Below are positions 5,010 to 55,346 of a stretch of DNA of 64,000 nt, in pieces (position 1 is the stretch's first letter; each line of letters begins with the position of its first letter). Under the pieces are notes generated by a model that saw only the letters and a program-made list of their open reading frames with translations, was not told the DNA's origin and did not search any database. The position numbers were made by a program, and so were the translations under genes. Source of the stretch: Nannocystales bacterium (GTDB lineage: Bacteria; Myxococcota_A; Polyangia; Nannocystales; Nannocystaceae); assembly GCA_050633305.1 (NCBI GenBank), contig JBOEGF010000027.1, positions 95,403-159,402 on the forward strand, written 5' to 3'.

Positions 5010-5063
5010 GTGTTCTCGTCATCCCGCTTGCCCGTGGCGCCCCCGCGCCCGGATACTCGTGTC

Positions 5064-5504
5064 GTGTCCCGTGTCCTGAGCATCGCACTCCTCGGCGTAT
5101 GCAGCGCGTGCCAGCTCTGCGACGAGAACGCCGACTGCGAAGGCGGGCGCTTCAACGTGTGGGTCGCGACGTCGGATAACGCCCCACTGCCCGAAGGCAG
5201 TTTTGCGCTCACCGTCACCCCCGATGTCGGAGCCGTGCTTCACGGCGAGTGTATGGTGAGCAGCCAAGGAACCCGCGCAGAGTGTTCCGGAGACGCCGTC
5301 GCCGGCTCCGTGAACCGACGCGATGTTTTCACGTTCCTGCGAATCTCCCAAGACCCGACCTTCGCCACGCTCGTCGGCGTGGGCCTCACCCACAATGGCG
5401 TCGTCGTGGACGAACGCGAAGATGAAACTCTGGACTTCTACCGCGGGGACTCCTGCGACAACGACTGCGGCGTCGCCGACGTCCAGCTCCAACCGCTGCC
5501 ATGA
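5064..5504 (+). CDS. Hypothetical Cys-patterned lipoprotein (paralog of 6194..6613)
   Basis: GTG 5064 (start uncertain, ORF open from 5010); signal peptide and CSAC lipobox; Cys spacing aligns with the 6194 protein. Confidence 0.65.
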   Translation: MSRVLSIALLGVCSACQLCDENADCEGGRFNVWVATSDNAPLPEGSFALTVTPDVGAVLHGECMVSSQGTRAECSGDAVAGSVNRRDVFTFLRISQDPTFATLVGVGLTHNGVVVDEREDETLDFYRGDSCDNDCGVADVQLQPLP

Positions 5505-5524
5505 CCGCCCTCGAGCGGTCTCGG

Positions 5525-5607
5525 TCCGTGGAGCAGGACTCGAACCTGCACGCGCCGAAGCGCCGTGGTTTTACAGACCACTACCCTGCCAATCGGGTAT
5601 CCCACGG
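5525..5607 (-). tRNA. tRNA-Tyr(GTA), atypical: C1-G72, A8, long variable arm
   Basis: Reverse complement folds CCGTGGG/TCCACGG acceptor, ACCC/GGGT D stem, GTGGT-CTGTAAA-ACCAC anticodon arm, GCGC-TTCG-GCGC variable arm, GCAGG-TTCGAGT-CCTGC T arm, discriminator A. Confidence 0.85.
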
Positions 5608-5983: not shown

Positions 5984-6094
5984 CTATCGAGAGGCTCGAC
6001 TGCCCACCGCAGACGCGGAATACGACGGACTCGACTGCACATCGGCGATCGGGGTCGGGAGTCGTACGGCGTTGCGTTGCGCAGGAGCGTTCAT
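5984..6094 (-). CDS. Putative 36-aa Ser-rich leader peptide of the tRNA array (not in ORF track)
   Basis: ATG 6094 to TAG 5984: MNAPAQRNAVRLPTPIADVQSSPSYSASAVGSRASR; lies between candidate promoter and first tRNA. Confidence 0.4.
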   Translation of the reverse strand: MNAPAQRNAVRLPTPIADVQSSPSYSASAVGSRASR

Positions 6095-6106
6095 CGGTTC
6101 CGCGTC

Positions 6107-6134
6107 AACCTAGCGCCCGGAGGAGGACCGTCAA
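6107..6134 (-). promoter_or_regulatory. Candidate sigma70-type promoter for the leader/tRNA array
   Basis: TTGACG (6134-6129)-N16-TAGGTT (6112-6107) followed by GC-rich GACGCGG, resembling stable-RNA promoters. Confidence 0.5.
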
Positions 6135-6193
6135 GGCGAAATTGGAACCCGTACTCGCTTGCGGACCCCGACCCGGCGATCGAGACTCGGAGA

Positions 6194-6613
6194 ATGCTCC
6201 GAGCCGTGCTCTTGCTGGCCCTCGCCTGCTGTGGGGTCGGATGCCGCCCATGCAACGAGCGCTGCGTCGGCGGAATGCGGATTTCGCTGGAGGCCGACCC
6301 GGTGCTCTCGGATGGCCGGTACGACGTGGTCGTCACACTGGACGGCGGCACGGCTCTCGAAGCGAGCTGTACCATCGCGGAGCGGGGCACCGTCGCGACC
6401 TGCGAGGGCAGTCTCCACGCTCTCGGGGAAGACGGTTCGCAGGACCTCAACGTCCTGCGACTCTCAGAGCCCGCTTCGGGGGCCGAACACGTCGAGGTGG
6501 AGGTGTACTGGAACGACACCCTCCGCATCGACGCGGATGTCCAACTCGATCAGGAACCGAGCGAGTCCTGCAACCCGCACTGTGCCTGGGCGAGCGCAAC
6601 CCTCCCCTTGTAG
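6194..6613 (+). CDS. Hypothetical Cys-patterned lipoprotein (paralog of 5064..5504)
   Basis: RBS GGAGA, ATG 6194; signal peptide with GVGC lipobox; aligned Cys pattern. Confidence 0.7.
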   Translation: MLRAVLLLALACCGVGCRPCNERCVGGMRISLEADPVLSDGRYDVVVTLDGGTALEASCTIAERGTVATCEGSLHALGEDGSQDLNVLRLSEPASGAEHVEVEVYWNDTLRIDADVQLDQEPSESCNPHCAWASATLPL

Positions 6614-55268: not shown

Positions 55269-55340
55269 GGCCCCATCGTTCAGCGGTTAGGACGCGAGGT
55301 TTTCATCCTTGAAACCAGGGTTCGATTCCCTGTGGGGTCA
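55269..55340 (+). tRNA. tRNA-Glu(TTC)
   Basis: GGCCCCA/TGGGGTC acceptor, CGAGG-TTTTCAT-CCTTG anticodon arm, CAGGG-TTCGATT-CCCTG T arm; CCA not encoded. Confidence 0.95.
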
Positions 55341-55346
55341 CTTTTT

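Follow-up and report, generated by a model that had tools for sequence, protein, structure and literature searches.

A second-copy tRNA cassette in a Nannocystaceae genome, probably under the control of a leader peptide written in the codons of its own tRNAs

We examined a 64,000-nucleotide stretch of DNA from a Nannocystales bacterium (the window; positions 95,403 to 159,402 of contig JBOEGF010000027.1, assembly GCA_050633305.1), in which four transfer RNA (tRNA) genes for serine and tyrosine lie on the minus strand behind a short open reading frame (ORF) that holds seven Ser codons and one Tyr codon in its second half. We consider it probable that this is a self-contained cassette of spare tRNAs under leader-peptide control, and that the spare tRNAs are probably made only when ribosomes falter on the codons that they read. 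The sensor part of the leader is well supported by the comparison of many such cassettes, and we infer from sequence that the leader is translated, that ribosomes stall in it and that stalling induces the tRNA genes.

The 36-codon ORF, the promoter hexamers, the Ser and Tyr codons and the 103-nucleotide gap before the first tRNA gene, all described in an earlier note on this DNA, are each present on the minus strand. A predicted sigma-70-type promoter consists of a −35 hexamer TTGACG (6134-6129) and, 16 nucleotides on, a −10 hexamer TAGGTT (6112-6107), a spacing that recurs before 15 Ser-led cassettes; a consensus scan of the locus for promoters and terminators found none, and the promoter-like site is nonetheless conserved in homologues. 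Transcription would start near 6100 and give a nearly leaderless mRNA from this copy, where several homologues have instead a purine-rich, Shine-Dalgarno-like site before the leader ATG. The leader ORF (MNAPAQRNAVRLPTPIADVQSSPSYSASAVGSRASR; 6094-5984) begins with ATG at 6094 and closes with a TAG ending at 5984; its codons 1-20 include neither Ser nor Tyr, and its control-codon stretch, codons 21-35 (6034-5990), holds in order TCG, AGT, TCG, TAT, TCC, TCT, AGT and TCT. A GC-rich spacer with hairpins (5983-5881) separates it from the array (5880-5523; four genes, two amino acids), which is made up of tRNA-Ser(GCT) at 5880-5795, tRNA-Ser(GGA) at 5782-5696 and a divergent tRNA-Ser(TGA) at 5694-5612 that falls under the Rfam gathering score, and of a tRNA-Tyr(GTA) at 5607-5523, all four detected by ARAGORN. 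Behind the last tRNA gene, a hairpin (5500-5522, minus strand) lies at the stop of a convergent gene.

The host genome (G000; 11.0 Mb, 66% G+C, 92% complete) carries housekeeping genes for tRNA-Ser with anticodons GCT (contig C18), GGA (C49), TGA (C2) and CGA and for tRNA-Tyr (C27) elsewhere, so that the cassette genes are second copies, supernumerary to a full housekeeping set. The view that the T-ending codons of the leader are uncommon in this genome was borne out by its codon usage, in which AGT and TCT make up 5.9% and 5.3% of Ser codons and TAT 15% of Tyr codons. The same Ser array is found in named records, including Paraliomyxa miuraensis and a Nannocystaceae metagenome-assembled genome (MAG).

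A single ORF of this kind is only suggestive. Among 1,709 background ATG ORFs with lengths of 30-42 codons, three carry at least eight Ser or Tyr codons in the last 16, and because this 16-codon window was picked post hoc the proof has to be comparative; when the whole ORF is counted, 345 of the 1,709 are equally rich, which speaks for a chance ORF in GC-rich intergenic DNA, as the earlier note had allowed. We therefore rely on homologous cassettes. Under a fixed rule (TTG[AC]C, 17-19 nucleotides, TANNNT, then the first ATG, with the Ser groups separated by tRNA sequence) 15 of 16 divergent Ser-led arrays, among them that of G000, are preceded by a leader, and none of the 21 housekeeping-type Ser loci is. 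When ten leaders (G000 and nine homologues) are aligned, 20 of 20 gap runs within the ORF have a length divisible by three, against 2 of 17 after the stop codon, these counts being alignment rows rather than independent events. The closest relative compared (X4) shares with G000 only the array and the promoter-leader block (5994-6145), and the 110 bases between array and leader block are replaced by 80 others. The short ORF between promoter and tRNA genes is under coding constraint, and the check that the earlier note had proposed came out in its favor: the ORF persists in homologous upstream regions and its codon content tracks the array. The fixed promoter rule missed the non-Ser cassettes, which were spotted by eye and later scored by script.

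The correspondence between leader codons and array tRNAs extends well beyond serine. Across cassettes, leaders track Tyr or Trp, Pro/Gln/His, Lys/Asn/Thr and Leu/Arg, with up to nine amino acids followed. In the eight arrays that include a tRNA-Tyr the leader contains Tyr and lacks Trp, and in the two that include a tRNA-Trp it contains Trp and lacks Tyr; loss of the tRNA-His gene is accompanied by a fall in leader His codons from three to one (L031 compared with L102); the leaders of arrays extended by Gly, Ala, Trp and Cys tRNAs are rich in those amino acids; and at L076 a leader of the Lys/Asn family is altered to suit Thr, Asp, Ala, Val, Ile, Met, Lys and Gly genes. Over 14 array types, each represented by one hand-chosen locus whose ORF a script selected, the matched score came to 59.5, compared with 15.6 ± 4.9 in permutations, none of 200,000 of which reached it. 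The hand-picked leaders of L053 and L165 were not recovered and are omitted from the later tables; L165, from a Deltaproteobacteria MAG, has six Ser tRNAs behind a poly-Ser leader, with a gene for a tRNA-binding domain upstream.

A prospective test used 40 regions taken from 152 tRNA matches in the genomes of L161 (Actinomadura nitritigenes) and L174 (Paraliomyxa miuraensis) and fetched before the upstream DNA was viewed; they comprised clusters and low-scoring single genes, and arrays already known were left out. For the 41 tRNA units in these regions the matched score was 42.2 against 23.3 ± 4.5, a value reached by 23 of 100,000 permutations. Seven units scored at least 2, one of which (L215) is probably there by chance. 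The set yielded new cassettes at L198, L200 and L202 of A. nitritigenes, at L218, L219 and L223 of P. miuraensis and, by eye, at L220 and L227; at L198, which has nine tRNA genes, 32 of 33 leader codons lie within the set of its array. A further prediction concerned L045, whose five Ser genes leave unexplained the Gly, Trp, Cys and Ala in which its leader is rich, so that further tRNAs were expected. In the longer version of this region (L194), genes for Arg, Gly, Ala, Trp and Cys tRNAs were found beyond an NYN-domain gene. Conservation, frame preservation and both permutation tests together counter the chance ORF, which we now regard as extremely improbable, the residual doubt being a base-composition artifact common to leader and array.

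Several observations weigh against so close a match. The array's own set ranked first in just 10 of the 14 rows of the 14-type test. Among the 49 tRNA units of G000 three score at least 2.8, namely the Pro/Gln/His unit, the Ser/Tyr locus (2.81) and a housekeeping Arg(CCG) unit (2.97), and the last, a chance false positive, outscores the locus studied here. Neither L199 nor L201, both divergent arrays, has a matching leader, a divergent Gly(GCC) gene in G000 (C65:19689-19762) has no leader, and codon 23 of the X4 leader is a Trp codon for which no tRNA was seen in the array compared. The isoacceptor match is also loose, since the L006 array has only Ser(GCT) and its leader contains TCG codons. 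The control codons are specific for the regulated product with the exceptions of L006, L199/L201 and X4, and the claim of the earlier note that the codons call on each tRNA of the array stands firmly at the level of amino acids and more loosely at that of isoacceptors.

The untranslated leader is predicted to fold on itself. RNAalifold recovered unprompted a core helix between segment 1 (codons 3-6; 6088-6079) and segment 2, a near-invariant GGCAGTCG motif of Gly-Ser-Arg codons near the stop (6007-5994) that is common to the alternative folds. In an extended form of this helix, drawn from the same sequences on which it was tested, 83% of alignment cells are paired with 11 two-sided changes, a result matched by none of 500 shuffles, and slid controls gave 27-44%; the alignment thus predicts a 1:2 helix that a ribosome could disrupt. 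Unrelated leaders of the Lys/Asn family form the same start-to-stop rod (91% paired, covariation slight), and in them the segment can instead pair with a copy of itself further downstream (80%). On the other side, the 1:2 pairing at the G000 locus itself stands at 12 of 100 against shuffles, with a z of −1.7 for the leader. A candidate segment 3 past the stop codon (5970-5963) pairs with segment 2 in one model of the stalled ribosome, and this weakly supported pairing, present in folding models, stands at 44 of 100 against shuffles at the locus and is clearly above them in one of ten leaders. The 9-base-pair inverted repeat to which the earlier note had drawn attention (6098-6106 with 6012-6020) is present as a perfect complement and is probably incidental: as a conserved element it fell away, as the longest equivalent match in nine homologues is 4-8 nucleotides. 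We rejected it as the switch, as it is private to the G000 copy, X4 having a substitution at 6101 and a deletion at 6106; since one arm begins directly after the −10 box, most of that arm probably lies upstream of the start site.

The conserved motifs of the peptide, Met-Asn/Ala-Pro at the N terminus and Gly/Asp-Ser-Arg further on, could indicate that the peptide itself is functional, or a protein or RNA bound to the GGCAGTCG motif, and that the codon match is a by-product. Both motifs are however explained by their pairing with each other, and the peptides of different cassettes share no sequence while each matches its own array, and we consider this explanation very unlikely. Under leader-peptide control, the sigma-70-type promoter would drive the short ORF, which in its second half uses the codons that the downstream tRNAs read. 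When housekeeping Ser and Tyr tRNAs are plentiful and charged, the ribosome would reach the stop codon and the tRNA genes would stay largely off. When these tRNAs are scarce, uncharged, cleaved or modified, it would stall in codons 21-28 and keep segment 1 from pairing with segment 2; RNA past the ribosome would then refold, and the spare tRNAs would be made. As the product would be the very molecule that is sensed, the regulatory loop would be direct.

The Ser/Tyr cassette is not alone in its genome. G000 also has a divergent Pro/Gln/His cluster (C13:26362-26900) with a matching leader ORF upstream, a divergent Lys/Asn cluster (C10:852900-853420) with a matching leader and remnants of lost tRNAs in its spacer, and a Leu/Leu cassette (C47:18510-19300) with a matching leader. 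Arg(GCG) and Arg(TCG) genes stand at this last locus as well, and their leader looks decayed, which counts with the exceptions above. At C32:152651-152730 a Glu-like tRNA body is called Asn(ATT) by ARAGORN. The coexistence of such cassettes bears on a rival reading in which the leader is a general sensor of translation stress, of the whiB7/wblC or ermC type, so that any stalling insult such as an antibiotic would induce the tRNAs and the codons would be secondary. Any early stall would release segment 2, and the leaders do favor minor codons (AGT, TCT and TCA make up 30 of 84 leader Ser codons, against 15% genome-wide); a spare-tRNA operon of Anabaena is likewise induced by impaired translation, according to passages of PMC8421152. 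Several cassettes per genome, each with a leader matched to its own tRNAs, are however more than a general sensor would need, and we hold this mode to be unlikely as the whole explanation, while noting that it may coexist with a codon-specific one.

Further points against leader-peptide control concern the output step. The 103-nucleotide spacer contains no hairpin followed by a U run, and no intrinsic terminator is therefore recognizable at the locus. Among 28 Nannocystaceae spacers a U-run hairpin is present only in L070 and, by eye, in L008; U-tract terminators are otherwise seen at the Actinomadura-type loci and at L108. Many housekeeping tRNA genes of G000 do end in such terminators. The termination factor Rho (PF07497) was found in none of 11 genomes of the family, one of them a single contig, compared with three of five relatives in the class. 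In the G000 assembly, with its completeness of 92%, the best evidence for it was a TIGR00767 score of 67.6 bits against a cut-off of 509 and tblastn hits of 24-26% identity, and we rejected Rho-dependent attenuation on this ground. The family genomes in which Rho was not found are 7-13 Mb in size and high in GC. A terminator of the FttA/aCPSF1 type was also rejected, as G000 has no Beta-CASP domain, and an RNase J-like gene is present that falls below its family cut-off. The proposal of the earlier note that a stalled ribosome lets transcription run through a terminator into the tRNA genes is not supported for this locus, given that there is no U-run hairpin, that the spacer is replaced in X4 and that no Rho was found; bicyclomycin, which the earlier note had suggested as a probe, would for the same reasons probably reveal little here.

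The locus is attenuator-like in its sensor, but it belongs neither to the classical nor to the Rho-dependent attenuators. As to what its output might be, we tentatively put first that transcription pauses or terminates at a GC-rich hairpin lacking a U run; control of the decay or processing of the precursor is a serious possibility; some further factor seems improbable; and the absence of any output, with the sensor decoupled, appears more improbable still. In a rival explanation the leader is a sensor without a switch, a relic of an attenuated ancestor that has lost its terminator, so that the cassette is transcribed constitutively. The missing terminator and Rho fit this idea, as do the free replacement of the X4 spacer, the weak support for the 2:3 pairing, the decayed Arg leader on C47 and the X4 Trp codon that has no tRNA. 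Members without a terminator nevertheless keep the frame (20 of 20 gap runs), the 1:2 helix with its two-sided changes, and the codon tracking for Tyr/Trp and His, and the leader is better conserved than spacer and flanks. That these features are kept in terminator-less leaders implies current selection, and we judge the relic unlikely.

Actinobacterial cassettes, from a second phylum, supply the terminator that the locus lacks. A pattern for the spare Ser(GCT) gene gave 91 matches in a collection of species genomes, of which 80 were retrieved. Sixty-four loci belong to Actinomadura, Spirillospora or Thermomonospora, mostly with Ser-Met-Arg-His arrays. Each of these 64 carries a leader and a purine-rich site, and inspection by eye shows in each a GC hairpin followed by a U run immediately ahead of the first tRNA gene. 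Their leaders are composed of 28% Arg, 20% Ser, 14% Gly, 12% His and 5.5% Met. In models of 61 of the 64, a predicted antiterminator sequesters the left arm of the terminator with a mean probability of 0.61-0.68 when the ribosomal A site is at least 10 codons from the end, and at 0.19-0.30 when it is at most 8 codons away. Against this, the terminator mostly wins at equilibrium in the model and untranslated RNA is also antiterminated, so that the Actinomadura switch would have to be kinetic. The tRNA-Met gene is missing in four of five loci without an internal leader Met compared with 6 of the 59 others (p = 0.0015, the loci being kin and not independent). At ten loci (L116, L123, L137, L138, L154, L162-L164, L168 and L176) ARAGORN calls the Met position SeC(TCA) or leaves its anticodon unassigned, and the anticodon loops are enlarged or decayed.

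Two Kitasatospora Gln-Ser-Ser-Tyr arrays (L108 and L180) have Gln/Ser/Tyr leaders, and on Kitasatospora chromosomes the same design recurs, Shine-Dalgarno site and textbook terminator included; for two further Kitasatospora loci the scan covered ATG starts only. At L109, L156, L169 and L178, loci of Streptomyces and Streptacidiphilus with a single Ser(GCT) gene of the spare type, no matching leader was found, and L109 has a hairpin upstream in its place. In a Microbacterium record (L131) this Ser(GCT) type occurs within a mixed tRNA array of greater length. A phage origin of the spare tRNA type was rejected on a narrow test, in which the one pattern used gave no match in viral contigs.

The spare tRNA-Tyr is unusual in itself, combining a C1:G72 first pair with a long variable arm, whereas the housekeeping tRNA-Tyr of G000 begins with G and keeps G1:C72. 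All 11 cassette tRNA-Tyr genes compared begin with C, in one case after an extra base included by ARAGORN (window 5523-5607, minus strand, and L002, L003, L006-L008, L038-L040 and L044 are among them). Passages of PMC5370408 describe a C1:G72 tRNA-Tyr with a variable arm in bacteria that belong to the Candidate Phyla Radiation (CPR), likewise an archaeal-type first pair on a bacterial long-arm body. There it is paired with an archaeal-type tyrosyl-tRNA synthetase, whereas G000 has one such enzyme, of bacterial type and matching TIGR00234, and one tryptophanyl-tRNA synthetase. A second, archaeal-type tyrosyl-tRNA synthetase for the C1:G72 tRNA was considered and not found in G000. A changed acceptor stem would be a fitting trait in replacement tRNAs that escape enzymes attacking tRNA. 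Carrying this thought further, the Nannocystaceae might possess a network that surveys translation codon by codon, with cassettes that each test part of the code and release tRNAs of altered identity, such as the C1:G72 tRNA-Tyr, that may evade toxins or nucleases. Because neither Rho nor a U-tract terminator is seen at the leaders, a ribosome stalled there would work by an output not yet described, for instance by gating whether the tRNA precursor survives or is processed, or by a novel form of termination. We regard this wider picture as speculative and somewhat doubtful.

Among known systems, T-box riboswitches likewise read the state of a tRNA by codon-anticodon pairing and govern the transcription of what lies downstream. 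The cassettes differ from them in that the specificity lies in translated codons; an Rfam scan of the window gave tRNA matches only, with no T-box or other cis-regulatory family. Closer still are the leader-peptide attenuators of operons for amino acids and aminoacyl-tRNA synthetases in E. coli, such as trpL, hisL, the multivalent thrL and ilv leaders and pheM. Shared with these are an upstream short ORF, control codons that name the product, several amino acids per leader, alternative helices with a common segment and, for cassettes of the Actinomadura type and of Kitasatospora, a GC hairpin followed by a U run. The cassettes differ in regulating tRNA genes rather than enzymes, in the presence of several per genome that cover much of the code and, at the Ser/Tyr locus, in having neither a U-tract terminator nor a detectable Rho. 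Passages of PMC8079986 describe leader attenuators in Streptomyces lividans (leuL, trpL, alaL, ilvL, metL and thrL) and list leuL1, trpL2, metL and thrL as lacking a U-tract terminator.

The second copies also recall the L-arrays. The trn operon of Anabaena sp. PCC 7120, one such array, has supernumerary tRNA genes that are induced when translation is impaired (passages of PMC8421152, whose main text contains neither 'leader' nor 'attenuat'), and is reported to be under a repressor, TrcR (PMC10272220). As there, extra tRNA genes stand beside a housekeeping set, and an HNH gene lies behind cassettes L050 and L053. L-arrays are long, with up to 43 genes, and the Anabaena one is controlled by a repressor protein, whereas the cassettes have about 1-17 genes grouped by amino acid and a cis-acting leader of their own; with four genes for two amino acids, the Ser/Tyr array is not the one long array for most amino acids that defines that class. 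We found no description of leader-peptide control of tRNA genes in the literature searched, which lay mostly outside subscription journals; PMC6429828 has no passage on tRNA genes.

The flanking genes vary between loci. Among 74 flanking ORFs compared there is no integrase and no conserved partner gene, only HNH twice and DUF1501 twice in sister loci. The HNH nuclease genes lie behind two related cassettes (L050:408-1049 and L053:111-749), and the NYN-domain gene splits a third (L045:2011-2943), both resembling other mobile tRNA arrays. In the window the cassette is flanked by plus-strand genes at 5010-5504 and 6196-6613 for small, Cys-rich, probably secreted proteins without a Pfam match that are, by eye, mutually similar. 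Elsewhere in the window a housekeeping-type tRNA-Glu(TTC) (55269-55341, plus strand) has a hairpin and U run behind it.

Attenuation is a textbook form of control for amino-acid operons, and its application to tRNA genes themselves is what we did not find described. If the proposed control holds, it would explain why many bacteria with large genomes carry odd second-copy tRNAs, and when these are used. The cassettes would also provide a forecast, readable from sequence, of the tRNAs whose loss their hosts anticipate, be it through starvation, antibiotics, toxins or anti-phage nucleases, and the leaders would be natural codon-specific sensors of translation. The records include cultured strains (Paraliomyxa miuraensis, Actinomadura nitritigenes, Thermomonospora and Kitasatospora), which makes these ideas testable, and the Nannocystaceae locus, with neither terminator nor Rho, poses a clean mechanistic question.
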